The notes under the pieces: generated by a model
Seen by the model: only the letters and a program-made list of their open reading frames with translations
Databases searched by the model: none
Told to the model about the DNA's origin: nothing
Shown here: positions 1 to 27,400 of the stretch, piece by piece
Numbering within the stretch: the first letter of the stretch is position 1
How the letters are laid out: the number at the start of each line of letters is the position of its first letter
Source of the DNA: Squalus acanthias
Lineage: Eukaryota
Length of the DNA: 64,000 nucleotides
Direction of reading: 5' to 3'
Assembly (NCBI GenBank): GCA_030390025.1
Contig: CM059431.1
Span: forward strand, 149,732,001-149,796,000
Made by a program: the position numbers and the translations under genes

Positions 1-474
1 TTCCCTTTTCCACCACTAATTCCAACACACACACACTCCCCCTGGGGTCCCTGTGATCGTCCGGTAGTTGTCGTTCCCAGTCAGCTGTATTGTCCCCTAT
101 ATCCATGCTCAGCATCCTGAGCCACCACCACCTATCCAGGGGAATCCGTCCGTTGCATGTGAGAAACACACGTTTCCCTTCAGTGACGCTGACACTTGTA
201 GCAACGACCTGTACCCTGGGGCACGGGATGGAGGCCTCCACGTAGGTGAACCCGGTCTGGCAGGAGTATTTTGCAGAGTTAGACCCTAGCCACCCTGGCC
301 ACCTTCCGTCATGGAAGTAAATAGCCAGCAACTCCACACCTGGTTTGCCACCCCCAGCGGTAACGATCGGCGCTCTCTCTCTCCCGAGCACCCATAAATG
401 TGGGAGTCCTCCACGTCACCTCGGTCACCGATGCTCACCCCTACCAGGGCGAGCAGGAGCAGAACCTTCCTCAT
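1..474 (-). pseudogene. env: env N-terminus of provirus A (signal peptide plus Ig-like domain), frameshifted
   Basis: MRKVLLLLALVGVSIG signal peptide from ATG 474; another frame reads CPRVQVVATSVSVTEGKRVFLTCNGRIPLDRWWWLR, matching CPKVRIIAPRISVTVGKRICLTCSGNVPLSRWWWLR of provirus B env. Confidence 0.88.
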
Positions 475-2849: not shown

Positions 2850-5793
2850 AATTCTAAAAGTTCTAAGAGCGTTAAAAAACAAGCCTGAAGGCTTTGTGTC
2901 TTAATGCGAGGAGCATTCGTAATAAGGTGGATGAATTAGCTGCGCAAATAGAGGTAAACAAATATGATATGATTGGGATTATGGAAACATGGCTCCAGAG
3001 TGACCAAGTCTGCGCACTCAACATACAGGGGTATTCAATATTCAGGAAAGATAGGCAAAAAGGAAAAGAAGGTGGGGTAGCATTGCTGGTTAAAGATGTG
3101 ATTAACACATTTGTAAGGAAGTATATTAGCTCTGATGATGTGGAATCTGTATGGGTAGAACTGAGATATACCAAGGGGCTGACAACGCAATTGGGAGTGG
3201 TGTGTAGACTCCAATCAGTAATATGGAGTTTGGGGATGGCAATAAAGGGGAAATTAGAGATGCGTGCAATAAGAACGCAGCAGTTATCATGGGCGACTTA
3301 TATCTACATATAGATTGGGCTAACCAAATTAGTAACAATACTGTGGAGGAGGAATTCCTGGAGTGTATACGGGATGGTTTCCTGGACCAATATGTCGAGG
3401 AACCAACCAGAGATCAGGCCATCTTAGACTGGGTATTATGTAATGAGAAAGGATTAATTAGCCATCTTGTTGTGCGAGGCCCCTTGGGTCGGAGCGATCA
3501 TAATATGACCGAATTCTTCATTAAGATGGAGAGTGAAGTACTTGACTCAGAGACTTGGGTCCTTAATTTCAATACTATAAACTACGATGGTATGAGGCGC
3601 GAGCTGGGCAGGATTGATTGGGGAATGTCACTCAAAGTGTTGACGGTGGAGAGGCAATGGCAAGCATTCAAAGATCGCATGAATGAATAACAGAATTTGT
3701 TCATCCCAGTTTGGCATAAAAATAAAACAAAAAAGGTGACTCAACCGTGGCTAACAACGGAAATTAGGGATAGCATAAGATCCAAGGAAAGGACATATAA
3801 ATTGGCTTGAAAAAGCAGAAAACCTGAGGATTGGGAGCAGTATAGGATTCAGCAAAGAAGGACAAAGGGAATAATTAAGAGGGGGGAAATAGAGTATGAG
3901 AGTAAGCTTGCGAGAAACATATAAACGGACTGTAAAAGCTTTTATAGATATGGGAAGAGAAAAAGATTGGTGAAGTCAAGCGTAGGTCCCTTGCAGTCAG
4001 AATCAGGGGAATTTATAATGGGGAACAAAGAAATGGCAGGCCAATTAAATACATACTTTGATTCTGTCTTCACAAAGGAGGACACAAATAACCTCCCAGA
4101 GATGTCGGGGAACATAGGGTCTAATGAGAAGGAGGAACTGAAAGAAATCAGTATTTTTAGGGAAATGGTGTTAGGGAAATTGACGGGATTGAAGGCCGAT
4201 AAATCCCCAGTGCCTGATAATCTACATCCTAGGGTACTTAAGGAAGTGGCCCTAGAAATAGTAGATGCATTGCTAGTCATCTTCCAAATTTCTATAGACT
4301 CTGGAACATTACCCATGGATTGGAGGGTAGCTAATGTTACCCCACTATTCAAAAAAGGTGGTAGAGAGAAAACGGGGAATTATAGACCAGTAAGCCTGAC
4401 ATCGGTAGTTAGGAAAATGCTAGAGTCCATTATAAAAGATGTAATAGCTGAGCAGTTGGAAAAGAGTGACAGGATCGGACAAAGTCAACAATGATTTACA
4501 AAAGGCAAATCGTGCTTGACTAATCTACTGGAATTTTTTGAGGATGTAACTGGTAAAATGGATAAGGGAGAACCAGTGGATGTGGTGTATTTGGACTTTC
4601 AGAAGTCTTTCGATAAGGTCCCGCATAAGATATTAGCGTGTAAAGTTAAGGCATATGGGATTGCGGGCAAGGTATTGACTTGGCTAGAGGACTGGTTGGC
4701 AGACAGAAAGCAAAGAGTTGGAATAAATGCCTCTTTTTCCGTGTGGCAGGCGGTGACTAGTGGGGCACCGCAGGGATCGATCCGAGGACCCCAGCTATTC
4801 ACAATATATATTAATGATCTGGACGATGGAATTGGATGTAATATCTCCAAGTTTCAAGACGACACAAAGCTGGGTGGGAGTGTGTGCCGGAAGGATGATG
4901 CCGAGAAACTCCAGTATGATTTGGACAGGTTGGGGGATTGGGCAGAAGCATGGCAGATGCAATATAATGTGGATACATGCGAGGTTATCCACTTTGGTGT
5001 CAAAAACTGGAAGGCAGATAATTATCTGAATGGCAATAGATTGGGAGAAGGGGAAATGCAACGAAACCTGGGTGTCCTAGTGCACCAATCGCTGAAGATA
5101 AGCATGCAGGTGCAGCAGGCGGTTAAGAAGGCAAATGGTAAGTTGGCATTCGTAGCGAAAGAGTTCGAGCACAGGAACAAGGATGTCTTGCTGCAGTTGT
5201 ACAGGTCCTTGGTGAGACCACATCTTGAGTATTGTGTGCTGTTTTGGTCGCCTTTTCTGAGGAAGGGTGTTCTTGCCATGGAGGAAGTGCAGCGAAGATT
5301 CACCAGGCTGATACCCGGGATGGCAGGAATGGAATGAGGAGAGATTGGGTCGATTGGGCTTATACTCACTGGAGTTTAGAAGAATGAGAGGGGATCTCAT
5401 GGAAACTTATAAAAATTTAACTGGACTAGACACACTAGATGCGGGAAGGATGTTCCCGATAGCCGGGGAGTCCAGAACCAGGGGTCACAGTCTAAGGTTA
5501 CGGGTAACCCATTTAGGACTGAGATGAGGAGGAATTTATTCACCCGGAGAGTGGTGAACCTGTGGAATTCTCTACCACAGAAGGCAGTAGAGGCCAATTC
5601 ATTAAATATATTCAAGAAGGAGTTAGATATATTTCTTAAAACTAAAGGGATCAAGGGTTATGGAGAGAAGGCAGGGACAGGGTGCTGAATTTGAAAGATC
5701 AGCCATGATCTCATTGAATGTCGGAGCAGGCTTGAGGGGCTTAATGGCCTATTCCTGCTCCTATCTTCTATGTTTCTATATTTCTATGTTTCT
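2850..5793 (+). mobile_element. CR1 LINE (5'-truncated, near-full ORF2: APE endonuclease plus RT) inserted in RNase H of provirus A
   Basis: CLNARSIRNK, MGDLYL, NYRPVSLTS, YLDFQKSFDKV, FQDDTKL motifs; 3' UTR with (TTTCTATG)n tail; flanking ATAAA duplication at 2845-2849 and 5794-5798 restores the host pol sequence. Confidence 0.95.
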
Positions 5794-7156
5794 ATAAATT
5801 CCACACCCGGTGAGTCGCTCGCCAGTAGATACTGTGCTCGAACCGTCCACATAGATTTCGCGGCCTCTGGGGTATATCCAAGCCCGAAAATCTATGTTGA
5901 CTTCCCATAACCCTTCAATGAAACACCGGTGGCCAGTCCCTGCGTAGATCATGGTGGCTGCGAGCTTCGGCTCGCAGAGACCTTTCACCCTTAGATCTAT
6001 CCGAGAGAGAAGCAGGGTCCAGCGAGCAATACGGGCACTGCTCACTGTAACGTCTTTGATACTCCCATCTAGGAGCATCTGTATGGGCGTGTGATGGATG
6101 AGGAGGGTGATGGGAGATGTCCCTGTAAAGATCAATGATCTTTTCGCAGCCCAGTGAGTGGCGATGTGGTGCCTCTCACAGTTGGAGTAGCCGTTCTCCT
6201 CATCGGTGAGTTTCCTGGAGGAGTAAACCACCGGTCTCAGCCGGTCGTGCCTCTCTTGGAGCAGCACGGCACTCAGACTGCCCCGCTGGCTGCCACCTCC
6301 AGGAAAAACTCCCTCTCCCCATCAATGGCCCCTAGAGCTGGCACGGTCTGCAGATCTTAATTTAACTTGAGAAATGCTGTCTCGCCACCCTCGTCCCAGG
6401 CCCACTCTACACCCTTATGTAGGATTCGGAGCAGAGGGGCTGCGGTGTCTGCGTAATCCTCAATGAAATCTCTGCAGTACCCGGTTAGCCCTGGAAAGGA
6501 TCTCAGTCCTGTGACACCGTGGTGGGCTGGTAACTCATGCACTGCTTTCCTTCTAGCTTTGTTGATGGCCCTTTCCCCAGCGCGCACAGCTAGCCCTAGG
6601 AATTTGAATTAATGTTGGCTAATCTGTACCTTTTTTGGGTTTACTTTGAAGCCTCCTTGCCGGAGCAGCTCCAGCAGTTCAGCCAGTAGTGGACCGTGTT
6701 CCTCTCCCTCATCAGTGAAAAGGAGTAGGTAATCCACATACTGTACCAACTGCCTTGGCCGGGTGAAGCCCTTCAAACAATTCGCCATGCATTGGTGAAA
6801 AATGCTCGAGCTGTTGTGGAAGCCATGAGGTAGGCAGTTCCAGATGTACTGTTTGCCTTAAAAGTGAAGGTGAACTTGTACTGGTCCTCTCTTCATACTG
6901 GGATGGACCAAAACCTGTTGGAAATGTCCAGCACTGTGAAAGTGGTCGCAGCTGCTGGGATACTTCCGATGAGGTCGGCGACGGCTGCTACCGTGGGTGC
7001 ACAGGCGGAGATGTTACGGTTGAGTACCCGATAGTCCACTGTGGCCCTCCAGGAGTTGTCAGGTTTTCTAACCGGCCACGTTGGAGAATTTACGTGACTG
7101 GCTATCGGTCTCAATACCCCCTGTGTTACTAAAGAAGCCATGGCACTTTCCATGTC

Positions 7157-7333
7157 GTGTAGCCTGATCCTGCTCCTATTTTCTGTGTCCAATTCTGTTA
7201 GATTCAGGAGATGGTTCTGTGATAGTAGATTGGTGGTTACGATCAGATCAGCCATGATCTTATTGAATTGCGGAGCAGGCTCGAGGGGCGAATTGGCCTA
7301 CTCCTGCCCTATTTCTTATGTTCTTATGTTCTT
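7157..7333 (+). mobile_element. Short retroposon with CR1 3' tail inserted in RT of provirus A
   Basis: 3' half is the CR1 3' end (agatcagccatgatc...ggagcaggctcgagggg...(TTCTTATG)n); flanked by ATGTC duplication at 7152-7156 and 7334-7338. Confidence 0.85.
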
Positions 7334-7985
7334 ATGTCAGCTTCTGCCTCCCTGAGTAAATTGTATTGCTTCTGTGATCGCTCATTGGGTCCTCGCTGAC
7401 ACTAACCTCGACCCCCTTTTCCCTCCCACATTCGTGCTTGTGATTGGCAAATGCTGCGAAGTGTGCTCGCACAAATGCCTGGTAGGCCATCGGAGTGTTA
7501 CTGACCATTTGTTCGAGGTCGTAACCTTCCTTTGGTTTCAGGGTGCACAAGGTCCCCTTGCCCTGTTTCCCTAGTATGACTGCCACTTCAGATTCCCTGC
7601 CAGTACATGCTCCCCACAGACAGTGGTTCCTAAGATCCACTAGAATCCTGCGGCCTACGATATATTCGGCCCCCAGGATCCCCGTCCCTTTCCGCTCCCA
7701 TTTCATCAGGACACAGGTCCACTTGGTGTGGAGTGCTCCTAAATGAATGGACAGCGTGATGGAGAACGAGCCAGCCTGCTCGTTAGCTGTAAACCCCACT
7801 AAGCTGTACGGGACCCTGTTGGACAGAGGTGAGGCGGCGGGGTTGGCTGAATAGACTATGGTGCTGGAAGCTCCAGTATCAAACAGATAAGTCCCTTTCC
7901 GCTTCTCTCCCTCCATCCTACCGAGCGGTCTCTTCCATGCGTCGTACTCCAGTGGACACAGGTAGACAGGCTGCGCTGGCTCTAG

Positions 7986-9766
7986 TCAAAAGTCTCCGTT
8001 AGGGGGGTGGGGGGGGGGCGGCAGATGGGGTTAAAGCACCAGTGGCGGTGGTTACTTTCCCTGGGACGTTTACTAGAGCTCGGATCGCAGCCACGACCGT
8101 GTCTAACGTGGGGGAAGAGGTCGGTGCTTCGGTGCTTGTGGCAGGAACTGGGGAGTTCTTCCCTATGGTATCTTTACACGGTTTCCTACAGTCTTTTCTC
8201 CAATGCCCACTCTTCCCGCACCTGAAGCAGTTACGCTTCGTGTCGGGAGGTTTACCCCCTTCCTGGTGCCACTCTTTCTTATTACTATGCTTCATTTCGA
8301 GTACCTTTCCTTTGGGTGCGTGCTCTTCTGTCCCTCTACCGTTCCAGTAAGCCAGGGTCAGTTGTCTGACCACTGTCTCCTCAGTGACCCGGGTGTATTC
8401 GGGTCAAACCACAGCTCAGCCTTGGCCCTGATTCGTGGCAAGCTGTTTGCCACCAGCTTCGGAGCAACTGGGCCAGCTCATACTGATTCAGGTGAGCCCG
8501 GTCGAGAGCCCATTTACAGGAACTCCTGTACACAGGCCACAGTCGGTCTGCGAAAGCCTGTGGGGTCTCCCCAATAGCTGGGTTGTCTTCTCCACCCGGG
8601 AGAAAGTACTACCCGTTCATTCCCATGGCCTCCATAACTCCCACCCGGATAGCGGGGTATCCACCCTGCCCTCTTTTACTCTCTGCGGAGAGGGACTGGT
8701 AGATGTTGCTATCTAGGAAGAATTGGCGCATTATTGCCATCTCGGCATCATCGCAGTCATTGATGCCAGCTGCCTGCACTATTTCCATGAAGTGGACCGA
8801 GGGGTCCCCCTTTTGGGTTGAGCTTGTCCAGGTGGCTTATCATAGCCCTAAGCTGTTCGGTGCCATGGGGAGCAACGAATTGGCTTTCAAGAGTTCCTTG
8901 ACCCCCACCACTTCGGGAGGGCCAAACTTTTGCTGCCGGACCGGGCACATCGGCACCGGCACCGACCTTTCCTGCATTGGTTCGCCCTCCCCTCCCTGCT
9001 GCCAAACCGAGTCAAAACCCGGCGCCACAGGTGGTGGTGTGCTCTTCCTGACGGCCTCACAAATCGCCCGTCCCTCCTGCTGCCAAACCGGGTCGTACAC
9101 CGGCGCCACAGGTGGCGTCCGAACAGTTTCCCCTTGCACTTCCAGGTCCCACCGGGCCGCAAACGGGCTTAGTAGGCATAGATAGAGCAAGGTTCAAACT
9201 CTCGATTTGTTTCTGGCAGGGGCTGTGATCTCCCGCCCCATACAACCTAGTGATTGCTATCTTGTAAGCTGCCTGGACGGCTCTCAACCTCTCCTCATGC
9301 TCTCTTACTTGTTTGGCAAGGCGGGCGTTCTCTTCCCGCACCAACAGTTCACTGGTTTTGGCTTCGGTGACCTGACACTGAAAATATTCCTGCCTGTTTC
9401 TGTGTGTTTCCACTAGCTGCATTTTTTACCCTGATTTCGGGTGGTTAGCTCATTCAGTAATGTTTCTCCTGCTAGGGCCGTTGCTTGAGACAGCTGAGCA
9501 GACTCCTGCAGTTCTGCCTTAAGTGCCTCAACACGTTTGTCTAACAGCTGGATCTGCCGCTGGGAGCAGATAAACCAGATGGCCTTTTCCACAGATTCCC
9601 TGTGGTCTTTGCTCTCAGTCCATTTAGCTGCAGCGTCCATTGGACGCTCAACACGCAACAGACTGAGTACCCATTTCTTGGTTATGTTCACTTTCTCGAA
9701 CACATAGGAGGAAATCCTCTCTTCCATCTCGGGTTCTTTCCTCAAATACAATGTCCTCTGCATCAC
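7986..9766 (-). pseudogene. gag: gag of provirus A, frameshifted
   Basis: YVFEKVNITKKWV, QVTEAK coiled-coil, EQLRAMISHL and CCHC knuckle segments match provirus B Gag. Confidence 0.9.
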
Positions 9767-9782
9767 ATTACTTTTGCCATGC

Positions 9783-9799
9783 TCCTGCCACGGTCGCCA
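9783..9799 (-). promoter_or_regulatory. Primer binding site (tRNA-Arg type) of provirus A
   Basis: Minus strand TGGCGACCGTGGCAGGA 3 nt after the LTR end CCCTTACA; one mismatch to the provirus B PBS. Confidence 0.85.
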
Positions 9800-9802
9800 T
9801 TA

Positions 9803-10186
9803 TGTAAGGGGTGGCGGTTTGTGTCAGCTTCACCTCTGACTTCTCAGCGGTTCGAATCGCTCCCATTCCCTTGGTTCTAGTCCTTGGTCTTATTTGGGGG
9901 TTGTGACAAAAAATGCAGCAGACAACTGGTTTTGATACAAGAACGTTGATCTTTATTCAAGAAAGTAAAACACAACACAAACACTCTTAACACTCTAAAA
10001 GTGGGGAACACTTCGGTACAAGCGAGGGAAATAATATTAAAAGAGTACTACACCCCTCCCAATCCCACTTTACTAGCTAGGTTGGACTCCAGAGGAACAG
10101 GGATGATACTCACCAGAATCCTTGACAGTTAGGTTAGTTCGCGGTTTTAGGGTTCACTCTATATGTCGGTAGGTGTCTGCCGTACC
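9803..10186 (-). repeat. Truncated 5' LTR (R/U5 part) of provirus A
   Basis: Ends CCCCTTACA next to the PBS; AATAAA on the minus strand near 9952-9957; sequence largely unlike the provirus B LTR. Confidence 0.75.
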
Positions 10187-10250
10187 CTGGGGAATACGCC
10201 TGATCCGGGTTAGCCCTAAAGGGGCAAGGCCTGGTAATTATCCCTTCAGT

Positions 10251-10268
10251 TGGCGCCGAACGTGTGTG
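10251..10268 (+). promoter_or_regulatory. Degenerate tRNA-Lys1,2 PBS of the foamy-like ERV
   Basis: TGGCGCCGAACGTGTGTG, 2 nt after LTR end CCCTTCA; resembles the canonical foamy PBS TGGCGCCCAACGTGGGGC. Confidence 0.8.
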
Positions 10269-10511
10269 TTACTGAGTTGATACGGAACCTATACTTATAT
10301 TTATATCTATATCCATCTTGTAGATTGTTAAGTATAGACGGAGTGTTTTACTGACAATGGTACTTAGACATAGATTGAAGTCTCTAGTGATGACAAATCC
10401 CTGATCAGGCCTTGTAGAACTTAAATCAGAACTTCCTCAATATACCATTGAGGTCTAGAAATTTCTGATAAAGTTTATATTAAACCCTCACCGAGGTTCG
10501 GTCCTGACGAA

Positions 10512-12067
10512 ATGGCAAACCCTGTCGGAATAGGACACGTTTTTTTATTAGGAAATTCAATTGATTGCTTTATGAGGGGAAATAATCCTATCCCTGTACC
10601 GCCACATAATCAAGTTATATATTTTGAAATAGAAGGCTTTTGTGCCAACTGAGCCGTTAGAACTCATGGCACGATTGATGTTGATCCCCAGAACCAGGGG
10701 ATACAGAATAACCGGTGGGATAATCAAACAAATACTCCAAATCCACTAAATTCCTTAATGATAAGGTGCACACCCGCACAATTGGGAGGCCTAATTAATG
10801 GTACCCAAAAAGGTGGTGGTAACCAAGGTGGAATAGTAGGACCCGGAGCAGGCTGTGCTCCTGGGGGGCAAGGATTCCGGTTAAGGTGGCAAAATCCTGA
10901 TGAAATAAATGACCAGAATCTTAGATAAAACTTTAGACAGTTTAGAATCCATTATAATCAATGCCGACAGGCACTAGCTCCAGCTTATCTATTTGCTGAA
11001 GGCGCAGTGATTACTGGTCCAGTAAGCCAAACCCAGCAACCACACATTGCGCCCTTAGGACAAGTAAACCTAAGCTCTATCTACACAATATGTGGTAGAT
11101 CGGGAAATACCAGCCGGGAAAAAATCCTGGTGGATTCTAACTAATCTTGATAAATTGGAAAACTGTTGCCAAGATTGGAAAGCCCAACACCTGAGGCAAC
11201 TACTGCAAATGATACTAAGTTCAGACTTAATTCCCCCGTTAACAGATGAGTTCAAATATACGCCTATGTTCTCACGGCAACTCAGGGAGGGCATGTAATG
11301 TGTTCCATCAAGGGAATACTCACTAATACCGCCACAACTAAAGGGCTGGTAGCTGCCTACAGATTAGGCAAAGACCTTACACAGGATAACTGGGAAATTG
11401 TCCATAGTTGCCTGACCAATTAATACCAAAATACACCCACAAACTTGCCTTTGAGGGTGCTCTAAACGATTATCGAGATAATCAACAAAGATGGGGTAAT
11501 TTCAATCGCATTATCCAATTAAATCATGACCTCTTAAGTGTACCCCAAACTAAACATATGATGAGATCAGAAACAAGGGATAAAAAACCGGAACAGGTAT
11601 CTTTGGTAATCAGAAACATTGACTGTAAAGACCTAAATCTCAAGTCCAGACAAAAACTCGTGGCTCGGGACCCCCGAGAGGGTATTCCAGAAGGTTTACT
11701 CCCCCAACTCGCCCACAATACGAGAAAGATTTCTCCCCAGAAAGAAGGGATAGACGAGTGGCCAGACCTCGAAAGGAAAGTGAAGGACAGTGGACTTCCT
11801 ATTTGAACAGCTTTTACACTTGCCAAACAATCAGAGAGCCATGGGAGGACACGGGAAAACCGAAATGGGGATCAACAAGTTTCCTGGCAGAACCAACGTC
11901 CACCCCAACAGGAGGATCGTCAAGATAATAATCGGACCGACAAACCCCCTAAGGGATCTGGAAAACATGAAACCCCCAAGAGGGAGGGACAAAAATCAGT
12001 TAAAATAATTAAGGAAAAAACAGCAAATGAAACTGAGGATCCTCAGGATGAACAATCCTAGGATTGA
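10512..12067 (+). pseudogene. gag: Foamy-like gag, many stops and frameshifts
   Basis: PHNQVIYFEIEGF resembles the foamy Gag N-terminus; GLVAAYRLGKDLTQDNWEIV resembles the foamy Gag central domain; R/G/P-rich C-terminus with no CCHC knuckle seen. Confidence 0.7.
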
Positions 12068-15000
12068 ATGCCTGGCACCCAGCCAGGGCCTCGTCAATTC
12101 CCCTACGCCCTGGCAACCTTTCCCACAAACACAAAAGTGAACGCCCTGGCTGATACGGGAGCTGATTACACTGTAATAGACCCTGCAATTATAAAATCTA
12201 AGTGGACAGATTTGGGGAGCCCAATTTGTAAAAGATCATTAGGGGTTTCACCCAAGACAAAACCAAAATAATTAATGTTTACATAATACCTATTATTATA
12301 TATGGCATCACGTTGACCCTAGATGTAGGACTGGTACCACATTTCGCCTATTCCCTCATTATAGGACAACCAGACATGAAACATTAAACATTAAAATCTC
12401 AACAAGACGTGCAGAAGCATCCAAAGATCAGGATGACAGGGCAAAACATGTTCCGAGACAGCTTGATCGAACTTGCCTTGAGGTTCTAGGCAGAGACCTC
12501 CTCGAGCAACTCATTAATAGATACTGCCCTTATATAAACGTCATCCAAATCAATGTGGAAAGATAGACATCAAACCACACCCACTTGATGCTGGCTGGCA
12601 CAAGCCTAAAAAACAGTGGCCTATTGAAGACCACAAAGGGAAATGATAACCCCTAACAACGCTCAAAGAACTAACAGAAGATGGTGTCTTAATCAAAATG
12701 GCATCTAGAACTAATTCACCATTGTTTGATGTTGCTAAACCAGATGGAAGGTGGAGATTAGTGATCGATTATACAGCCTCAAATAAGATAACAACCCCAC
12801 ATACTGCACAACAGCAAAATTCCACAGCCCTTCTCTCTGGAATCAGAAGGGAAAAAATTAAATCTTGTATTGATCTAGCAAACGGCTTCTGGTCACATCG
12901 AATCGAAAAAACTGATTGGCCAAAAACAGTGATGACTGGACCCGATGGCTATCAGTACTGCTGGTCCAGATTGCCCGAGGGAATTCAAAACAGCCCCGTT
13001 CTCTTTTCAGCCCACGTCATTGACCTTTTAAATGACCTACCTAACGTCAATTCTTATGTGGACGATATATATCTGTCACATGATAATCTCCAAGGGCACT
13101 TGAAAGCGTGTTTTATCCAGACTTACAACTGCTGGGTACTTAATAAACATATAAAATATTCAACTAATTAGGGAAGAAATAGATTTTCTGGGCCTGCGAA
13201 AAAATGGAAACGGTAGACGATTACATCAATCCTATAAAGAAAAATTAGCCACCATTCAATACCCTAAAACTCTGAAAAATTTGCAAGCAAGTTTAGGACT
13301 CCTGAATTTTGCTCGATCCTTTACGCAAGCCTTTGCCGATCTCTCAGCACCCGTGTATGCTAGAGTGGGCAAAGCAGCAAAAGGACCATTCATATTTTCA
13401 CCAGGCGATTACTCAAAATTACAACAATTATTCTTGGAGCTACAAAAAGATATAGACCTGGAACAGATGGTCCTACAAGTTCCACTCAATATTCTTCTCA
13501 GTTCATCACCTAAAGTGGCAGTTGCAGTTATCTATAATGAAAAGAGCGTAGTGCCCATTCAGTTCCATTCTTATATCTTTTCCAATGTTGAAAGGAGGTA
13601 AATTAAAAAAGAAAGGGTCATGACTGTGGTAATCCAATGCCTCATCAAGGCACGAACCCTTCAAGGGAAATACCTCATTACCATCTATATTGGGATACCC
13701 GATTTAAGATCAGTATTGAGGATGGCTTCTGATGAAAAAATTAGCCACCCAGATCCGTTCTGATAAATGGGCATCGTTATTGAATGATCCTACACTCATT
13801 TTTAAATATCTCTCCCCGGAAATGGACAGAGCATCTCCCCATCATGGAGGATGATGATACGGAGGAGGGAATCAGACAAATACCTATGAGATCGCTTAAA
13901 GAGTACCATCAAGACATTTACTCTGATGGATCTTCAATTACGATTATAAAAGCGATATCCCAACAATCCTCAGCTGGGATGCCATAGTAGCAGAGACTTT
14001 TCGAGATTCCTATTCTTTTTATATAGATGAATTACTGTCCATACCACTTGGCCATAAGACAGCGCAATATGCTGAAGCTGAAGCATTATGGTCTGCCTTA
14101 GAAAAGGCAGACCCTATTAAACCCACACTAATCTGTACAGATAGTGACTACTGTAAAAGAGGATATAACCAAGATCTAGTTTTCTGGGAACAAACACATT
14201 TTACCAATCATGAGGGTAAACCCATAAAACATGAGTCAGTTTGGGAAGACATTCTCCGTTCGAGAATGGATAAACAGAATTGTCAGGTGATTCATGTAAA
14301 CGGGCATAACAATGGGACAGTACACTCAAAAGGAAACAGTCTTGCAGACGAACAAGCGAAACGTTAGGTCTGCATGACACCCCCTTGAGAGGGGTCTGCC
14401 AATATTAGTGTAATCATTAGGGCAGAATGGGCAGCTAATCAGAATGAGGAACTGATTCAGCTATTAGACCCAACAAAAGAGAATCCACCAGGATATCCAC
14501 CAAAGTACTTTTACTCGGAAACCCCTACGGGTGTTGTGCTTGTTAAGTTTCCCAAGGGAAACCGAGAAGTACCCCCGAGACACAAACGAGTACAGCTTGT
14601 AACAGAAGGTCACGAGGCATAGGTCAAGCAGAGTGTGGTGCTAGAACAACATTCTGCAAATTGAGCCCCTTATATTGGTGGCCAGGCATGCTTTAGGCCT
14701 GTAAAACATATGTGGCAAATTGTGAGCCATGTTATTTATCAATAATTCATTCCTAATTTAGCCACCACCATTGGCTCCGGTGAAAGCTGATGAGCCACTG
14801 GGAAAATTCTTCATTGACTTTATTGGACCACTTGCCCCGTCTTTGGTGTAGGCTTCGCAAAATCCCACAGAAACTCGAACAGAGCCCTAAAGGGAGTGAT
14901 TTTTGGACTTTTCATACAAACTTGGGATGATGGGACCTCAGTGAAGTGATTTGATGTAAAAACCTAAAGATCACAAGAAGAAAACCTGAGGAAACTGATT

Positions 15001-16861
15001 TTTATGAATCTTATTGTTGGGAGAGACATTTTTTTTCACAGACAAGCTGCGAGGGGCGTGGCCGGTCAGTGAACGGATCAAGCTGTCTGGGAATTGTTTG
15101 AGACAATGCAAAACTCACAAGCACATTCAAATATGGATTGCCAGGGGCAAGCAAGATGCTGGTAATCTAAAAACGATTCAATGACAATATAAAACCGATC
15201 ACACAGTTTCATAGCCATTATCCCATCAAAAAAAAAAATCAAGCAGGGATCCAGAGAACAGATTTAAAAGCCTGCCAAACAGAAAGACAATAGAGTGAAG
15301 ATTTGGCGCGTAGATAAGGCCGTTTTTTGAATTGGAAAGCAATTAACACTAAGCAAAAACCATCGGAACTGGCCAGCCCGCCAAAAACGAGACAATTGGA
15401 AGAAGCAAGGGTCATTTACATTCAAAAAGGAATTAGTTTTAGTAAGGGGTTTTTGAGCGCGAAAAAGAAGCAGTATAATTTGAAAGCCAGTGCCATAATC
15501 TCTCTCTTTGGACTGACTGGCGACGTGGACACAGCTCTATCCCTGCTCCAGCAAAACTTACCACAAGCCACTAGGAAGAAGACCAGCACGCAAGACGAAA
15601 CCATAAGGGCCTTCCGGAGTCCTTTTAAACAAAAAGACTCTAATATCCTGTCAAGGATTCGTTGGTGAGCAGTATCCCTGATCTCCTGAAAACAAAAATC
15701 TAGCCAGATAGTGGGATATTTGGGAGGGATAAGGTTTTGTTTGATATATTGTCATTTCCCTCGCTTGTACCGTGGGTTCCCCGAATCTGTGTTTTAGTAA
15801 TAAGTGTGTTTCAAGTTTGTTAGCTTTTTTTTCTTTTAATAAAGTAAATTTCTTTCATCTGAAACTGTTTACAGCAATTTTGTTCACAACCCCTAAATAA
15901 GCCCAAAGTCTAGGAACCGGAGGGGTGTTGGTCGATTCGAACCACTCACTTAAGATACCCCTTACATTGGGAAACAGACATTTTCTCGTTTGTGCAGATG
16001 GATGCACTTCTTTCTGCTGGCTGGTCCCCACAAAAACTGTTTCGGAAAACGCACTCGCAAATGCTATTACTGATATAATTACTGTCGCTGGTGCACCCAA
16101 AATCTTACACTCCGATCAAGGCGGAGCCTTTGTCTCCAAAGTCTTCAAAGACTACTGCGAATAGGGGGGATTGGGTTAAAGCACAGCACGCCAAATCATC
16201 TGCAATCAGCGGGGCTGAGGAACGTAAAAACCATGAAGTAAATTAGCTATTGGTGAAACTGTTGAGAGTCAGGGGGAATAAGTGGACCACCGTCATTCCG
16301 GAGGTGCAGCTATCACTTAATAATGTGCCTGCATCTGCATCAGGGACAGTGTCCCCTAAAATTCCATATTATCTGATGTATGGTGTTGAGATGAATACAC
16401 CACTTACCCATAGCTATTTTATTGCCTTTACAATCTCTGAGTCCTTGATTCGACAGCGACAGATAGATTTAAAAAAAGAAGTAACAGAGGAGATTGATCA
16501 AATTGATCAGAGGATAAGGGAGTCACATATGAAGAAAAAAATGATAAACAAACTATGAAAACACCTAGTAGGAGAATGGGTACAGGAAAAGAAGTTCGAG
16601 CAAAAACATGGTTTAAGACCGAAGTGGGAAAAACCTGTTCAAATACATACTGTGATTAACAAAACAACAGTTAAAATACATACTAATCAGCCGAGAGGCA
16701 AGCATATTATTAAATCTGTCTCCAAAGACAGACTCAAAAGATGTCCTCCAGGATACCGAAAAGGAGGAACAATACAAGGTGCAGTCGTACACTGTCTTTC
16801 AAGACCCAGCTTGGAGCACGTCACAGGAAATGGATGCGATCGAACTTCTGACGATGGTTAG
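12068..16861 (+). pseudogene. pol: Foamy-like pol (PR-RT-RNase H-IN), disrupted; integrase split by a solo LTR
   Basis: ALADTGADYTVI protease, YVDD RT, LGLLNFARSF thumb, IYSDGS/AQYAE/ICTDSDY RNase H, IDFIGPL and HSDQG integrase. Confidence 0.9.
14847..15966 (+). mobile_element. Solo LTR (1120 bp), probably of a third lokiretrovirus-like family
   Basis: TGTAG...CCCCTTACA termini, 4-bp TSD TTGG (14843-14846 and 15967-15970), AATAAA at 15838-15843; removal restores integrase IGPLAPSLG|NRHFLVCAD. Confidence 0.88.
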
Positions 16862-17392
16862 TCAGACATTGTCGCCGACTTCTCCACATGATGGTTGGCA
16901 AAGCCTCAGGGATTGGATTTGCAAAAAGCCACAACCGAAACAAGGAAAGATCAACGAGTTGCTTCAATGAAGGAGGAATACACCGCGGATGAAGAAAGAA
17001 TCAACTGAGCGCCTGGCAAGGCCTTTACGAAAACAAGAATCTGTCACACGCTGGATCAAAGAACAGCGTGTCAAGCTTCAGATGTTCCAAATGACGTCTC
17101 CCTGTTTCGTATGAATAACTTACCTCAACGGAACGTACATCTGCTGATTGGACATTCTAAGTACATGCTGTTTCGCTAATTGCATGACAATGTACCTATC
17201 ATCCTTTTAAATTGTGTTCAATTTAAAATAAGGAAAAACATTGTCCTAGGATGACTTAAAAGGAATGTTCATGTGGCACAAGATTAGGCTCTTGTGAATT
17301 TCGTGAAATTAATGGGCTATTGTAACATTATTAATAACATTGAGCAAACACTGCTCTAAAGTTTTGAGTTCATTTTTTGGTCAAGAGAGGTG

Positions 17393-18698
17393 TGTGAAGG
17401 AATAAGCCATATTCAGAAATATACACTATCCTATGAAATATTCTGACCTTTGTAACATGACAAACTGGGCTTGCAAATCTAAAAAAACTAACAATGGAAA
17501 AGCTGTAAACAGTATACAGGCTGTTGAGATAAGATAAATTGTTGACACTGAATCAATAGCCTTGTTGAAACAGAAGGTTAAAGGTTCCTGAAGTCTGAAG
17601 CCTTGGAACGATTACAATGGTATACCACGTTAAGGTGTCTTAAATAACACATTGGAAAGAAACACATAAAAGAAGAAGAAACATATGCCTTCGTAAAAAT
17701 GACGTCAAAAGAACCACAGAAAATTAAGAAACATATGATTTGGTGAGAATGGCATCAAGTGGGGGAGGCACCAGCCATCACATTGTTTTTGTGTTGAACT
17801 TGGAACACCTAGGAGACACGATTCTGTGTGGCAACCAGCTGAGGTAACATAAGAACACCTTGGTAAGAATGACATCAAATAGATGCACCAGCTGGTCACA
17901 TCGTTTTTATGATAAGCTTCGAACACCTAAAGGAAAGACACGAGTCTGCTTGCTACCAGCTGAACTGACTGTAAGAATAGCAGGGGTCAACAGAAAAATG
18001 ACTAGAGATAATTAGCTTACATCAGCAGAAAACTTCAAAGGAAATACCACTGAAAAAGGGTATAAAAATTGTACTTTCAAATGGGATGATAGATTCGCTC
18101 AAAGGGGAAAAGCGATTCTCGGCTTCAGAGGCAAGCTCTGTAAGTCTACAACTCTTTGTATCTTGGGGATGAAGGTACTTTTATTTGATTTGGTATATAT
18201 CCTGGAATAAACAAAGATCTGTAAAACTAGCGAAGTTAAGATTTGAAAATAAGGATCTCTGAAAATAGAATTGTAATATTTATTTTTTTGGAACTGTTTG
18301 TGTTGCGATTGAATCACCAACTGGCAATTACATGTCAGTTTTTTTAATAAATCTATATATTTTTAGAATTGTCTCCATTAGTACTTCTGAATCAAACTCG
18401 CAAACTTAATCTCTGTACACTCTTTGGTGAGGAATTGCAGAATTCTGAGGGAGCTTTCCGGACCCTCATAATATCTGGAACATTACAGTCTAGCTAAACT
18501 CATTGAAAGTGCTATCTGGAGGATGGTAACATATTCAGGTTGTTCTTTTCCTTAAGGAAGAGATAGTCTGGAACTTGAGACCCAATTAAGCGTCTTTATG
18601 GTTCATCTACCTCAAAGTTTAGTTCAAAGTGGAGGACTGGGGAATATGACTGATCCGGGGTAGCCCTAAATGGGCTCGGACTAGTAATTAACCCTTCA
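17393..18698 (+). repeat. 3' LTR of the foamy-like ERV (~1.3 kb)
   Basis: Preceded by purine tract AAGAGAGG; TGTGAAGG...CCCTTCA termini; TATAAAA near 18061; start repeated at 23826 and end repeated at 10187-10248. Confidence 0.82.
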
Positions 18699-21600
18699 GA
18701 GAGATTCTCTCATTAAAATGGGCCCCTGAAGGGTATACACCCAATTTAAAAGGGGACTCTAATGGTGAGACTCCCTCTTTAAAAGTGGTCCCTGATGGTG
18801 AGACTCTCTCTTTAAAATGTGTCCCTGATGGTGAGAATACCTCTTTAATAGGGTTCCATTATGGGGAGACATCCTTTTTAAAAGGTGTAGCTGATGGCGA
18901 CACTCGCTCTTTTAAAGAGGTCCCTGATGGTTAGACTCTCACTTTAAAATATGTCCCTAATAGGAAGTTGTCTCTAAAGTGGTCCCTGATAGAAAGTCTC
19001 CCTCTTTGAAAGGGGACCTTGATAGAAAGACGCACTCTTTAAAATGGGACACAAGGGTGAGACTCCCTATTTAAAAAAGCTCCCTGATAGAAAGGCTCCC
19101 TCTTAAAAAGCGACTCTGATGGTGAGACGCCCTCTTTAATAAGGAAACCTAATGGGGAGACTTACTCTTAAAAGTGGTCCCTGATGCATAGACTCCCTCT
19201 TTCAAAGGGAATCCCTGATGGTGAGGCTCCCTCTGTAAAATGTGTCCCTGATGCTGTTCCACACATTTTAAAAGTGGTCCCTTTGGGTGAACCACGTTAA
19301 AAGGGTTCACTAATGGGGTGACTCTCTTTAAAATGTATCACTGATAGAAAGACTCTCTCTTTAAAGAGTCCCCGAGGGTGAAACTCCCTCTTTAAAACTG
19401 GTCACTGATGGTAAGATTCCCTCTTTAAAATTTGTCCCTGATGGTGAGACTTCCTTTTTAAAAGGGTTCCATGATGGTGAGACACATTATTTAAAAGAAG
19501 TCCCTGATGTTGAGACTGTCTCTTTAAAAGTGTTCCCTGGTGGAGATACTCTCTCATTAAAGGGTTCCCTGACGGGTATACTCCCTCTTTAAAAGGGGCT
19601 CCTGATGTTGAGACTCTCCCTTAAATAGGGGCCCCGGATGCTAAAACACTCTCTTTAAAAGGTTTTCCTGATGGTGAGACTCCCTATTTAAAGCGTTCCC
19701 TAATAGCGAGAATCTCTCTTTTAAAGTGGTCCCTGATGGAATAAAGTCCTCTTTAAAAGGGGTCCCCGAGTGTGAGACTCCCTCTTTAAATGTGTTCCCC
19801 GGTGGAGATACTCCCTCATTAAAAGGGGTCCCTAATGGGTATACTCCCTCATTAAAAGGGGCCACTGATGATGACACTCTCCCTTTAAAATGGGGCTCTG
19901 ATGCTGAAACACACTCCTTTAAAGGGTGTTCCTGATGGTGAGACTCCCTCTTTAAAGGGGGTCCCTATTAGCGAGACTCACTATTTTAAATTGGTCCCTG
20001 TTGGAAAGACGTCCCATTTAACAGGGGACTCTGATAGAAAGACTCTCTTTAAAATGGGTCTTCGAGTGTGAGACTCCCTGTTTAAAAGGGGTCCCTGATG
20101 CTGAGACTATTCTCTTTAAAATTGGTCCCTGATGGTGAGACTCTCTCTTTAATAGGATTGCCTGATGCTGAAACAGCCACTTTAAAAAGGATTCCTGATG
20201 GTGAGACTCCCTTTTTAAAAGGGGTCCTTCATGACGAGATTCTCTCTTTAAAAGGATTTGCTGATGGGGAAGACACCATCTTTAATAGAAGTCCCTGATG
20301 CTGAAACACCCTCTTTAAAGGTCGTCTCTGATGGTGAGATTCTCTGTTTAAAATGTTTCCTAACGGGGAGACACTCTTTAAAAAAGGCTCCCTGGTAGAA
20401 AGACTCTCCCATTAAAAAAGAGTCCCCGAGGGTGTCTCCCACTTTAAAAGGGGTCCTTGATAGAAATAATATCTTTAAAAGGGTTCCCTGAGAGAAATAC
20501 CCTCTCTTTAAAATTGGTCCCTCATATTGAGAATCGCTCTTTAAAAGCGGTCCCTGATGGTGATACTCTCTCTTTAAAAGGACTCCCTGATGGTGAGACT
20601 CTCTCTTTAAAAGAGCTCGCTGATGGTGAGACTCCCACTTAAAGGGACCCCTGATGCAGAGACACTCTTTAAAAGGCGTCCCTCATAGGAAAATTCTGTT
20701 TAAAACAGATCATTGCTAGAAAGTCTTTCTCTTTAAAAGTGATCCCTGATTGTGAGACTCCCTTTTATTAGGAGTCCCTGATGCTGAAACACCCTCTTTA
20801 AAAGTATCCCTAATTCGTAGACTTTCTCTTTAAAAGCGGTCACAAATAGAAAGGTTCCTTCTTTAAAAGTGTCCCTGATGCTGAACCCGCCTTTTTAAAA
20901 GTGGCCTCTGAGGGTGAGCAACTTTAAAAGGGATAACTAATGGGCAGATCTCTCTTTAAAAGGGGTCCCTGATAGAAAGACTATCTCTTTAAAAACAGTC
21001 CCCGAGGGAGAAAAGCCCTCTTTAAAAGGTGTCCCTGATGGTGAGACACCCTCTTTAAATGGGGTCCCTGATGGAGAGACTCTCTTTTTAAAAGGGTTCC
21101 CTGATGGTGAGACTCCCTCTTTAAAAGGACTCCCTGATAGAGAGACTCCATCTTTAAAAGGGGTCCCTGATGGTGAGACACACTCTTTAAAATGAGACCC
21201 AGATGGTGAGACACCCTCTTTAAAAGGAACTCTGATGGTGAGACTCCCTCTTTGAAAAGGATCCCTAATGGGGAGATACTCTCTTTAAAAGGGTTCCCTG
21301 ATGGTGAGACTCCCACTTTAAAAGGGGTCCCTGATGATGAAACACCCACTTTAAAAGGGGTTCCTGATGGTGAGACTCCCTCTTTAAAAGTGGTCCATGA
21401 AGGCGAGATTCTCCCTTGAACAGGGGTTGCTGATGGGGGAGACACCCTCTTTAATAGGAATCTCTGATGCTGAAATATCCTCTTTAAAAGGAGTCCCTGA
21501 TTGTGAGATTCCCTATTTAAAAGGGATCACTAATGGGGAGACTCTCTTTAAAAACGGCTCCCTGATAGATAGACGCCCTATTTAAAATGGGTCCATAATA

Positions 21601-23825
21601 GAAAGACTCTTTCTTGAAACTAGATCCGCGAGGGTGAGACTCCCTATTTAAAAGGGGTACCTGAAAGAAACACTCTCTCTTTAAAAGGTATCCCTGATGC
21701 TGAGACTCCTTCTTTAAAAGGGTCCCCTGATGGTGAGACACTCTCTCTAACAGTTGTCCCTGATAGTGAGACTCTCTCTTTAAAAGGTGCCCCTGATGGT
21801 GAGACTCCAACTTTAAAAGGGGTCCCTGATGGTGATACTCTCTTTAAAAGGGTCACTGATGGTGAGACTTCCTCTTTAAAAGTATCTCTGATGGTGTGGC
21901 TCCCTATTGAAATGGATTCCATGGTAGAAAGACACCCTCTTTAAAAGGGGTTCCTGATGCTGAAACACCCTCTTTAAAAGGGATTCCTGATGGTGAGACT
22001 CCCATTTTAAAAGGCGTCCTTGATGACGCGATTCTCCCTTTAAAAGGGGTTGCTGATGGGGGAGACACCATCTTTAATAGAAGTCCCTGATGCTGAAACA
22101 TCCTCTTTAAAAGGCGTCTCTGTTGGTGAGATTCTCTGTTTAAAAGGTTTCCGAATGAGGACACACTCTTTAAAAAAGGGCTCCCTGATAGAAAGACACT
22201 CTCTTTAAAAAGTGTCCCCGAGGGTGGGACTCACTGTTTAAAAGGGGTCCCTGTTCGTAAGATACTCTTTAAAAGTTCTCCCTGAGAGAAAGACAGCCTC
22301 TTTACAAGTTTCAGATGGTGAGACTCCCTCTTTAAAAGGGATGCCGCAAATAAAGTCCTCCCCTTTAAAATGGATCCCTGTTGGTTAGGCTCTCTTTAAA
22401 ATAGATCCCTGATCGAAAGACTCCCTCTTTATAAAATATCCTGATGGTGAGACTCACTCCTTAAAAGGGCTCCCTGAGAGAAAGACACCCTTTTAAAAAA
22501 GATCCCTCAAGGTGATACACCCACTTTAAATGGGGTCCCTGATGGTGCGACTCTCTCTTTAATTTGGGTCTCTGATGGTGAGTCTCCATCTTTAAAATGA
22601 CTCCCTGATAGGAAGACACACTCTTTAAAAGGGATCCACGATGGTGAGAATTCTTCTTTAAAAATGTTCCCTAATGGTGATAAGATCTCTTTAAAAGGGG
22701 ACCCTGATGCTGAGACTCCCTCTTTAAAAGGAGTCGCTGATAGAAAGACTCCCTCTATAAAAGGGGACACTGATGGCGAAACTGTCACTTTAAAATGGGT
22801 CCATGATGGGGAGACTGCCTCTTTAAAAGGGGTCGCTGATTCGGAGACACCCTCTTTGAAAGGGTTCCTGATGGAGAGACTCCCTCTTTAAAAGGAGTCG
22901 CTGTTGCTGAAACACCCTTTTTAAAAGGGGTCCCTGCTAGAAAGACGCTCTCTTTAAAAGTGATCACTGACAGAAAGTCTCTCTCTTTAAAAGGGGTCCC
23001 TGATAGTGAGATCCCGCTTTAAAAGGTCCCTAATGGTGAGACACCCTCTTTAAAAGGGGTGCCTGATGGTGAGGCTCCCTCTATAAAAGTGTTCACTGAT
23101 GGTGAGACACACTCTTTAAAATGTCTCTGATGGTGAGGCTCCCTCTTTAAAAGGAATCCCTGAAAGAAAGACTCCATCTTTAAAAGGGGTCCCTGATGGA
23201 GAGAGTCACTCTTTAAAAGGAGACCCTGATGTGGACACTCCATCTTTAATATAGTCTCTGATGGTGAGACTCCCTCTTTGAAAGTGATCCCGAATGGGGT
23301 TATTCTCTATCTTTAAAAGGGGTCCCTGATGGTGAAATTCCCTCTTTAAAAGCGGTCCCTGAGTGTGAGACTCCATCTTTAAAAGGGGTCCCTCATGGTA
23401 AGACTCACTTTAAAAAAGCTCCCTGATAGAAAGACTATTTTTAAAAGGGATCCATGATGTTAAGATTCACGCTTTAAAGGGGATCTCTGATTGTGAGACT
23501 CACTCTTTGAAAGGGCTCCCTGAGAGAAAGTCTCACTCTTTAAAACGGCTCCCTGATGGTGAGACGCCCTCTTTAAAAATAGTCCTGATGGAGACACTTC
23601 CTCTTTAGAAGTGGTCCCTGATGGAAACACTCCCTCTTTAAACGGGATCTCTGTTGGTGAGACTCACTCTTTAAAATGGCTCCCTGATGGTGAGAGTCAC
23701 TCTTTAAAAGTAGTCCTGATGGTGAGACGCCCTCTTTAAAAGGCGTCCCTGGTAGTGAGTCTTTCTCTTAAAAAGGGATCCCTGAATGTGAGACTCCCTT
23801 TTTTTATAGTGGTACCTGGTGGAGA
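18699..23825. repeat. Satellite array, ~33-bp monomer GGGGTCCCTGATGGTGAGACTCCCTCTTTAAAA, roughly 150 diverged copies
   Basis: Directly visible tandem repetition over 5.1 kb with variant monomers (GATAGAAAGAC, GATGCTGAAAC). Confidence 0.97.
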
Positions 23826-23987
23826 TGTGAAGGAGTAAGCCACATTCAGAAAAATACACCATTCTATGAAATATTCTGCTCTTTGTAACATGACAAACTG
23901 GGCATGAAAATCTAAAAAACTAACAATGGAAAAGCTGTAAACAGCATACAGGCATTTGAGATAAGATAAGTTGTTGAAACTGAATCA
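23826..23987 (+). repeat. 5' fragment of a second foamy-like LTR copy
   Basis: TGTGAAGGAGTAAGCCACATTCAGAAA...TGAATCA matches 17393-17555. Confidence 0.9.
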
Positions 23988-24327: not shown

Positions 24328-24464
24328 TTGAAACTTATAACATTCTAACAGGACCAAACGTACTAGATGCAGGAAGTGTGTTCCCGATGGCGGGGGAGTC
24401 AAGAACCAGAGGTCACAGTTTAAGGATAAGGGGTAAGCCATTTGGGACTGAGATGAGGAGGAAT
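24328..24464 (+). mobile_element. CR1 3' fragment, left half (continues at 27899-28150)
   Basis: gaaacttataa...ggactgagatgaggaggaat continues as acccagagagttgtgaacctgtgg after the nested minus-strand CR1. Confidence 0.8.
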
Positions 24465-27400
24465 AGAAGCATAGGAGCATAGAAGCATAGAAGATAGGAG
24501 CAGGAGTAGGCCATTAGGCCCCTCGAGCCTGCTCCGCCATTTAATGAGATCGTGGCTGATCATCCAAATTCAGTACCCTGCCCTTGCTTTCTCCCCATAT
24601 TCCTTGATCCCTGTAGCCTTAAGAAATATATCTATTTCCTTCTTGAATATATTTAATAAATTGGCCTCAAATGCCCTCTGTTGTAGAGAATTCCACAGGT
24701 TCACCACGCACTTGGTGAATAAATTCCTCCTCATCTCAGTCCTAAATGGCTTGCACATTATCCTTAGACTGTGACCTCTGGTTCTGGAATCCCCCGCCAT
24801 CCGAAAAATACTTCCTGCATCTAGTTTGTCTAGTCCTGTTAGAATTTTAAAAATTTCAATGAGATCCCCTCTCATTCTTCGAAACTCTAGCGAATATAAG
24901 ACTAATTGACCCAATCTCTCTCCATACGTCATTCCTGACATCCCAGCTATCATACTGGTAAATCTACTCAGCCGTCCCTCTATAGCAAGAACATCCTTCC
25001 TCAGATAAGGCGACCAAAAGTGCACACAATACTCAAGGTGTGGTCTCACCAAGGCCTTGTACAACTGCAGCAAGTCATCCTTGCTCCTGTACTCGAATCC
25101 TCTCGCTATGAAGGCCAACATACCATTTGCCTTCTTTACCGCCTGCTGCACATGCATGCTTACCTTAAGCGACTGGTGCACAAGGAGTCTCAGATCTCGT
25201 TGCACTTCCCCTTTTCCTAATCTATTGCCGTTCAGGTAATAATCTGTCTTCCTGTTTTGCCACCAAAGTGGATAACCTCGCATTTATCCACATTATACTG
25301 CATCTGCCATGCATCGGCCCAATCACACAACCTATCCATATTATACTGGATTTTCTCTGCATCCTCCTCACAGCATACACGCCCACCCAGCTTTGTGTCG
25401 TCTGCAAACTTAGAGATATTACATCTAGTTCCCTCGTCTAGATTATTAATATATATTGTGAAAAGCTGGAGTCCTAGCATCGATCCCTGTGGTACCCCAC
25501 TACTCACTGCCTGCCACTCGGAAAAAGACCCGTTTATTGCAACACTTTGCATCCTGTCTGCCAATAAGTTATCTATCCAAATCACTACCACACCCCCAAT
25601 CCCATGTGCTTTAACTTTGCACGCTAATCTCTTATGCAGGAACTTATCGAACGCCTTCTGATAGTCCAAATACCCCACATCCACTGTTTCTCACTTATCT
25701 ATTCTACCAGTTAAATCCTCAAAAATTTAAAGCATATTGTTAGGCATGATTTCCCTTTTGTAAATCCATGTTGACTTTGTACGATCCTGGCACTGTTTTC
25801 CAAGCGCTCTGCTATTACATTTTTTATAATGGACTGTAGCATTTTGCCACTATCGATGTCAGGCTTACCGGTCTATAATTCCCGGTTTTTTCTCTACCAC
25901 CTCTTTTAAATAGTGCGGTTACATTAGCTACTCTCCAATCCATGGGAACTGTTCCAGAGTCGATAGAATTTTGAAAGATGACCAGCAATGCTTCTACTTT
26001 TACTAGGGCCACTTCCTTAATACCCTAGGATAAAAATTATCAGGCCCTGGGGTGTTATCGGCATTCAATCCCGCCAATTACCCTAACACCATTTCCCTAC
26101 AAATAGTGATGTCATTCAATTCCTCCCTCTCATTAGACCCTATTTACCCCAACATCTCTGGGAGAATTTTTGTGTCCTCCTTTGTGAAGACAGAACCAAT
26201 GTATGTATTTAATTAGGCAGCCATATATTTGTTCCCCATTATAAAATCCCCTGATTCTGATTGCAAGGGACCTACGATTGACTTCACCAATCTTTTTCTC
26301 TTCACATATCTATAGAAGCTTTTACAGCCAGTTTTTATGTTCCCCGATAGCTCACTCTCATAATCTATTTTCCCCCTATTAATTAATACCTTTGTCTTCC
26401 TTTGCTGAAATCTAAACTGTTCCCAAACCAGAGGTTTGCTGCTTTTTCTGTCCAATTTATATGTCCTCGCCTTGGATTTCTGCTATCCCTAATTTCCCTT
26501 GCTAGCCACGGTTTAGTCACCTGTTTTGTTTTATTTTTATGTAAAACAGTGATGAACAAATTCTGTAGTTCATCCATACGATCTTTAAATGTTTGGCATT
26601 GCCTATCCATCGTCAACCCTTTAAGAAACGCTTCCCAATCCACCCAAGCCAACTCGCGCCTCATACCATCGTAGTTTCCTTTTTTTAAGCTCAGGACGCT
26701 AGTCTCTGAGTCAACGACTTCACTCTCCGTCTTAATGAAGAATTCTATCATATTTTGATCGCTCCACCCCAAGGGCCAATGCACAACAAGATTGCAAATT
26801 AATCCTTTCTCATTACATAATACTCTGTCTAAGATGGCCTGATCTGTAGTTGGTTCCTCGACATAATGGTTCAGGAAACCAACCCGTATACACTCTTAGG
26901 AATTCCTCCTCCAAAGTAGTGTTACTAATTTGTTAAGCCCAATCTATATGATAACTGCTGTTCCCTTATTGCACGCGTCTGTAATTTTCGTTTTAATGAC
27001 AGCACCAAACTTAGCATTACTCTTTGGGGGTCTGTATACAACACCCTGTCACGTTTTCTGCCCCTTGATATTTCTCAGCTCTACCCATACAGATTCCACA
27101 TCATCAGAGCTAATATCCTTCCTTACTATTCTGTTAATGTCGTCCTTAACCAGCAATGCTACCCCACCTCCTTTTCCTTTTTGTCTGTCCTTCCTGAATA
27201 TAGAATACCCCTGGATGTTGAATTCCCAGCCTTGGTCACCCTGCAGCCATGTCTCCGTATCCCAATTATATCATATCCATTTACATCTATTTGTGCAGCT
27301 AATTCATCCACCTTATCACGATTGCTCCTCGCATTAAGACACAAAGCTTTCAGGCTTGTTTTTTTAACACTGTTATTCCTTTTAGAATTATAATTTAGTG

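Follow-up and report, generated by a model that had tools for sequence, protein, structure and literature searches.

We examined a 64-kb window of Squalus acanthias DNA (the whole stretch that was analyzed, from contig CM059431.1), in which a decayed provirus lies across 10187-18698 on the plus strand. The original prediction, made from the letters alone, had described it as a foamy-virus-like endogenous retrovirus (ERV). All of its genes carry stops or frameshifts, and therefore this copy is a dead provirus. The features of the element and of its immediate surroundings are as follows (LTR, long terminal repeat; RT, reverse transcriptase).

10187-10248, plus strand: stub of the 5' LTR, its terminal 62 bp; the remainder is gone, and the stub borders directly on the LTR of a retroelement in the opposite orientation
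10251-10268, plus strand: decayed primer-binding site of tRNA-Lys type, with 12/18 matches (counted by eye) to the Lys-type site in PMC6955096
10512-12058, plus strand: gag, with stops and frameshifts, no Cys-His knuckle, and a Gag_FV_central match
12068-12400, plus strand: protease remnant, with a Met codon at 12068, DTG at 12152, and RVP matches at E 0.007-0.018
12530-13751, plus strand: RT and connection, frameshifted; tblastn with simian foamy Pol P0001 at 45.6% and 31.8% identity; YVDD at 13055-13066
13927-14364, plus strand: RNase H (Pfam RNase_H, E 1.7e-16)
14565-16858, plus strand: integrase (N-terminal part, core, and SH3-type end), broken and interrupted; tblastn, rve at E 1.2e-7, and SH3_11 at E 1.2e-4
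14847-15966, plus strand: insert within the integrase, 1,120 bp, TG...CA, with 4-bp direct repeats; 70% like the neighbor's LTR at 9846-10128
16830-17392, plus strand: post-pol stretch in the env position, 531 nt from the pol stop to the LTR
17380-17392, plus strand: polypurine tract, read from the sequence; a T-rich run precedes it
17393-18698, plus strand: 3' LTR, 1,306 bp, TG...CA
18699-23825, no strand assigned: host satellite of 33-bp units (about 156, from Tandem Repeats Finder and phase analysis), into which the element inserted
23826-23987, plus strand: start of a further LTR of the same family (first 162 bp), with 14/162 differences from 17393-17555

Pfam places RVT_1, RNase_H, rve, and SH3_11 in the pol region, where the original prediction had seen RT, RNase H, and integrase motifs that track foamy virus Pol closely. 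This claim held up: the open RT stretch (12650-13168) matched five foamy-type Pol chains in PDB at E 1.9e-43 to 4.7e-41, while the sixth chain, which we take to be Ty3-type, was at 1.4e-15 (204 PDB sequences matched). The best three of nine RT homologues were simian foamy virus Pol, at 48-50% identity. When RT was searched against 1.84 billion representatives, just two reached 1e-30: feline foamy Pol and P0010. P0010 ranked first by whole-protein E-value, and we rejected it: this Gypsy-type protein is from an arachnid, and three RT stretches, at 27% identity, add up to its score. Over the entire element, summed tblastn bits were 519-564 for mammalian foamy Pol and 489 for the protein P0015, and the rest of the 174 proteins had at most 277. 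Five further unbroken Pol stretches scored best with mammalian foamy Pol (three) or with P0015 (two), in a comparison where several of the references lack these domains.

We then placed the RT in a tree (IQ-TREE; 53 rows and 155 columns) that comprised the element, the 42 nearest rows of a 159-row FastTree, nine outgroup rows, and the window's third element. In it, the RT falls in a clade of 10 rows (98/94), whose other members are foamy elements of simian, feline, and newt origin together with two unnamed proteins. Within this clade it branches first, and the remaining nine rows are held together at just 89/72. Teleost proteins and a Scyliorhinus torazame protein form a separate clade of 15 rows (99/98), and a Callorhinchus protein lies outside both clades. 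(To call rows "teleost foamy-like," "class III," or "Gypsy" is our reading of hosts and domains.) Approximately unbiased (AU) tests were run on 28 of the tree's RT rows, with alternative groups named after the tree was inspected. Forcing the element together with the bird class III-type element gave p 0.002, with the Callorhinchus protein 0.030, with the teleost-type clade 0.045, and with the mammalian foamy viruses alone 0.139. We rejected membership in Gypsy/Metaviridae, since the RT groups elsewhere and the AU test gave p 0.011. Thus, the phylogeny agrees with the proposed foamy lineage and not with the Gypsy or bird class III-type groupings, the kinds that the original prediction had named as refuting it, and we are confident that the element is a dead provirus of that lineage. 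Because env, the internal promoter, and the accessory genes were likely lost, we file it as a defective relative of the foamy lineage rather than as a full member. Pattern scans for related loci found none among 15 matches in viral contigs and none among 68 in metagenomes.

The ends of the element had been described accurately. The 3' LTR, put at about 1.3 kb, measures 1,306 bp, which is within the range of foamy LTRs (about 950-1,700 nt; PMC6955096), and the Lys-type primer site, as also proposed, begins 2 nt past the CA of the 5' stub. A 63-bp match joins that stub to 18637-18699 (85.7%, E 4.5e-14, beyond chance). About nine differences had been counted in the 62-bp overlap of the LTRs, and exactly 9/62 sites differ between 10187-10248 and 18637-18698 (2 transitions and 7 transversions). 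At the border of the polypurine tract and the LTR, 17388-17392 has four of the five bases of GGGTG, the motif of foamy viruses at this border; the integrated left edge at 23826 begins 2 nt further in. The 3' LTR also holds an internal duplication of about 105 bp (17740-17963, 76% alike), and contig joints are variable there.

The insert in the integrase is probably a solo LTR that belongs to a different ERV family. Its contig depth is near zero in sequencing runs X6, X8, and X9 and high in X1, and contigs skip it in all four runs; therefore, it is a later insertion limited to some lineages.

The 5' part of the coding region is less well preserved. Gag_FV_central is the sole Gag family match of note from Pfam (E 3.2e-4 on gag; E 1.5e-5 and 25.1 bits on 11250-11420 alone), and gag also matches the newt foamy Gag P0177 weakly (E 0.014). 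The original prediction had seen no CCHC knuckle in Gag, and indeed CX2CX4HX4C is absent from all three forward frames of the gag region, although absence is weaker evidence in a gene that is this decayed. Arginine plus glycine make up 13-22% of the C-terminal Gag stretches. A single-sequence fold of the Gag N-terminus reached a predicted local distance difference test score of only 35. With gag read through its stops as X, none of 7 PDB matches was relevant, and 0/1,615 homologue candidates were found. As to whether Pol was made separately from a spliced RNA, in the manner of foamy viruses, the reading frame of the final gag stretch has two stops ahead of the Met codon at 12068, in a copy that is heavily broken. 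P0015 is a Gag-Pol of 1,687 amino acids in a single frame, with a DTG protease, and it lies within the foamy clade. It is a foamy-lineage element without a separate Pol.

Downstream of pol, 531 nt is too short for an envelope gene and accessory genes. The frame from 16830 has about 80 hydrophilic codons followed by a hydrophobic part, with nine stops. As the leader of foamy Env is hydrophilic and then hydrophobic (PMC7828637), the stretch is possibly the start of env, a lead that comes from hydropathy. The WxxW of the foamy Env leader does not occur in the post-pol stretch.

Is the missing env a peculiarity of this copy? Pieces of the element were found in 20 of the 22 listed runs, at shares of at most 0.27 and in eight organisms. 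In four runs from four organisms, 7,423, 14,631, 16,759, and 15,423 contig pieces cover the whole element, most of them less than 99% alike. The family is therefore likely present in many copies and common to several species, likely sharks. Depth is far greater in LTR bins than in internal ones (the 3' LTR has the highest depth of the element in three of four runs and is among the highest in X1), an excess that solo LTRs would give. In run X8, 45 contigs continue upstream of 10187, and 57 continue beyond 10248 into flanks that are unlike each other (agreement 0.34). Three of the four runs have a joint that skips about 1,263 nt of RT, and the fourth has a similar joint; these are RT-deleted variants. 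Post-pol bins are as deep as gag bins in all four runs. The joints (15/115) and loose ends (24/3,117) that were shown include none within 16862-17392. Together, these observations suggest, short of proof, that most copies of the family lack env.

At 18698 and at 23826 the LTR edge meets the satellite in one phase, next to an identical set of 4 bases; 6 of 63 regularly spaced units have this variant. Such a match would fit a single insertion, later duplicated in tandem, or else two insertions that favored one phase of the unit. As to the 4-bp target duplication of foamy viruses, the left edge of the copy is lost, and the 4 flanking bases shared by 18698 and 23826 may come from separate insertions. 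The satellite itself shows a higher-order period of 131 bp. We computed LTR ages of about 160 million years (62 bp, Kimura two-parameter distance 0.16, 95% range of the raw difference 7-26%) and about 90 million years (162 bp, distance 0.09), and we do not trust either date, because the pairing of the LTRs is unverified, seven of the nine changes are transversions, and the rate (0.5e-9) is borrowed from PMC10699275. The old insertion that was originally suggested, on 62 bp from LTRs whose pairing is unverifiable, is plausible. Because of the decay and the sharing among species, the insertion is likely tens of millions of years old or more. The original prediction had mentioned neither the missing env and the insert in the integrase nor the truncation of the 5' LTR, the abundance of copies, or the satellite phase at the LTR edges.

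Earlier work has described foamy-like ERVs in a chimaera, in teleosts, and in amphibians (PMC5512871, PMC5210030, and PMC4422223). The statement that cartilaginous fishes are sparsely sampled is dated, given an endogenous foamy virus of cartilaginous fish reported in J Virol in 2023 by Wang, Chen, and Cui (PMC9972966, whose title we have via citing papers) and 293 foamy-like elements, ERV-Spuma.0-Sca, in the small-spotted catshark (PMC10699275). By its title, the 2023 element roots to the vertebrate foamy viruses, and this is the position that our RT takes among the sampled rows; the comparison is with the title only. Set beside that title, our element is likely a member of an already reported foamy lineage of cartilaginous fish. 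Wang, Chen, and Cui reportedly covered sharks and rays, and one catshark lineage is said to be placed with the elements of ray-finned fishes; P0087 would fit this. A foamy family of sharks that lacks env was not found in the literature by title or start of abstract, a search that left most subscription papers, including the 2023 J Virol paper, outside.

ERV-Spuma.0-Sca is likewise a foamy-like family with hundreds of elements in a shark. However, it has an 866-bp LTR with another start, an annotated env, and a longer leader, and it groups with ray-finned fish elements (PMC10699275). We therefore rejected identity with it: LTR length, presence of env, and RT grouping all disagree.

The closest likeness is to the mammalian foamy viruses (simian and feline), with which the element shares 47-50% RT identity, YVDD, the SH3-type integrase end, the Lys-type primer, the long LTR, the lack of a Cys-His box, and a weak central-Gag match. 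In contrast to these viruses, the present copy has no env or room for bel/tas, no WxxW, and no A9 protease match, and the element has no clear GR boxes and is endogenous and many-copy. The Lys primer is not diagnostic, since most class III ERVs use it as well (PMC5210030). The newt foamy-like ERVs (Pleurodeles P0018, P0028, and P0177) share the RT clade and the Gag_FV_central domain, whereas NviFLERV retains env and an accessory gene and has an Asn primer (PMC5512871). ERV-L/MuERV-L and env-less "superspreader" ERVs, which are env-deficient and amplified in the germ line, provide a mechanistic model (PMC5930517; Magiorkinis 2012, as cited in bioRxiv 10.1101/2021.11.23.469661). Our RT stands apart from the sampled bird class III-type element; ERV-L itself is outside the tree.

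How might such a family have arisen? We think it probable, short of certain, that the family multiplied in the germ line by retrotransposition, after it had lost most of env and the accessory genes. An enveloped foamy virus would first have entered the germ line of an ancestor of cartilaginous fishes, and a deletion would then have taken most of env and everything downstream as far as the polypurine tract. Foamy Gag has no membrane-targeting domain, and Env is needed for budding (PMC3705263 and PMC7828637). Because Gag requires Env for exit, env-less capsids would have remained in the cell, where reverse transcription would have started from the Lys primer and integration would have given new copies flanked by 4-bp duplications; a primate foamy virus is able to retrotranspose within cells (PMC3705263). 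RT-deleted variants may have been carried in trans while solo LTRs accumulated. The present copy would have landed in the 33-bp satellite and decayed; its integrase would have received a foreign LTR of younger age, and little of its 5' LTR would have survived. We also suggest a more specific account, tentatively and with less conviction: the earliest-branching sampled relative of the tetrapod foamy viruses may have become a retrotransposon, with a single env deletion, before several cartilaginous-fish species split, founding an env-less "superspreader" family with RT-deleted parasites. The DTG protease and the gag-pol junction may record a state before Pol and Gag were separated.

Several observations weigh against placing the element with foamy viruses or against its env-less spread. 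First, the tree has 155 columns and lacks coelacanth, reptile, bird, caecilian, and the 2023 cartilaginous-fish sequences. Second, the Gag_FV_central match, at 25.1 bits, is below Pfam's cut-off of 30 bits. Third, the spumavirus A9 protease (Spuma_A9PTase, PF03539) was not matched at E up to 10 in a stretch that breaks after about 66 codons, and the protease motif is DTG, whereas P0001 and P0011 carry DSG/DSQ. Fourth, no Env likeness was detected in the post-pol stretch (no relevant Pfam match, none among 3 PDB matches, and 0/179 homologue candidates). Fifth, contigs are about 200 nt and the joints and loose ends shown are 15/115 and 24/3,117, so env-bearing copies are possible; the sole listed contig that crosses an LTR edge does so by 12 nt; and contig depth is no copy number. 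Finally, feline foamy virus retrotransposes poorly (PMC3705263).

We also considered whether an enveloped virus built up the family by infecting again and again, with env lost solely in the present copy or in a minor branch. This would be in keeping with the purifying selection on env in teleost foamy-like ERVs (PMC5210030) and with the retention of Env by most high-copy anamniote ERVs that have a gamma-type Env (bioRxiv 10.1101/2021.11.23.469661), and the joints and loose ends are shown in part only. However, LTR edges and other deletions did surface among those shown, yet no joint or loose end fell in 16862-17392, and cover is even across the post-pol stretch in all four runs. We regard this explanation as unlikely. 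Somewhat less likely is that the env-less form is the common one but owed its packaging and spread to a helper virus with env, instead of to retrotransposition within one cell. The RT-deleted variants already show mobilization in trans, and complementation has been proposed for young foamy-like ERVs of fish (PMC5512871), but no helper was seen, in an analysis that did not search the host assembly for one.

It is very unlikely that the element represents a separate class III lineage, or kin of the teleost and chimaera foamy-like elements, that a short alignment draws toward foamy viruses. The protease is not of the A9 type, and the AU p values are just 0.045 for the teleost-type clade and 0.030 for Callorhinchus, with groups named post hoc. 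Against this, RT is 49% identical to simian foamy Pol, the five other Pol stretches are all best with mammalian foamy Pol (three) or with P0015 of the same clade (two), and Gag has a weak foamy match, whereas the Gag of teleost elements has no detectable foamy homology (PMC5210030). Least credible of all is that copy number came mainly from DNA-level duplication along with the satellite rather than from reverse transcription: the in-phase edges at 18698 and 23826 (the variant of 6/63 units) are what tandem duplication would give, but the 57 contigs that exit the LTR end into unlike flanks in X8 point to many insertion sites, and LTR bins far outweigh internal bins.

The window holds other repeats as well. 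Head to head with the foamy 5' LTR stands the 5' LTR of a neighbor at 1-10186 (minus strand), both being truncated. This neighbor has a CCHC Gag, is split by a long interspersed nuclear element (LINE) at 2850-5795, and is an older relative (71-74% alike) of the family at 39152-51500 (minus strand). The latter is a young provirus of another family, with 1,259-bp LTRs that are 98.5% identical, a gag with one stop, and an open pol frame of 1,506 codons with two RNase H-type domains; its RT lies outside the foamy-like clade. In its env position is an open frame of 854 codons with just weak matches to Ig chains (E 0.4-0.75). Further copies of the LINE lie at 24463-27389 and 57430-58794 (about 83-88% identity), and other satellites are at about 55700-56600, 59300-60100, and 61100-61650.

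Taken only as one more foamy ERV, found in a shark-type genome, the element adds little to the 2023 report; the added interest is in its apparent env-less, many-copy state. Foamy viruses are held to endogenize rarely (PMC10581153). If an env-less family of many copies does sit at the base of the tetrapod foamy clade, then the retrotransposition known from cell culture would have run in a germ line too. Copies in large number, spread over related species, would moreover supply orthologous loci for dating the deep history of retroviruses.

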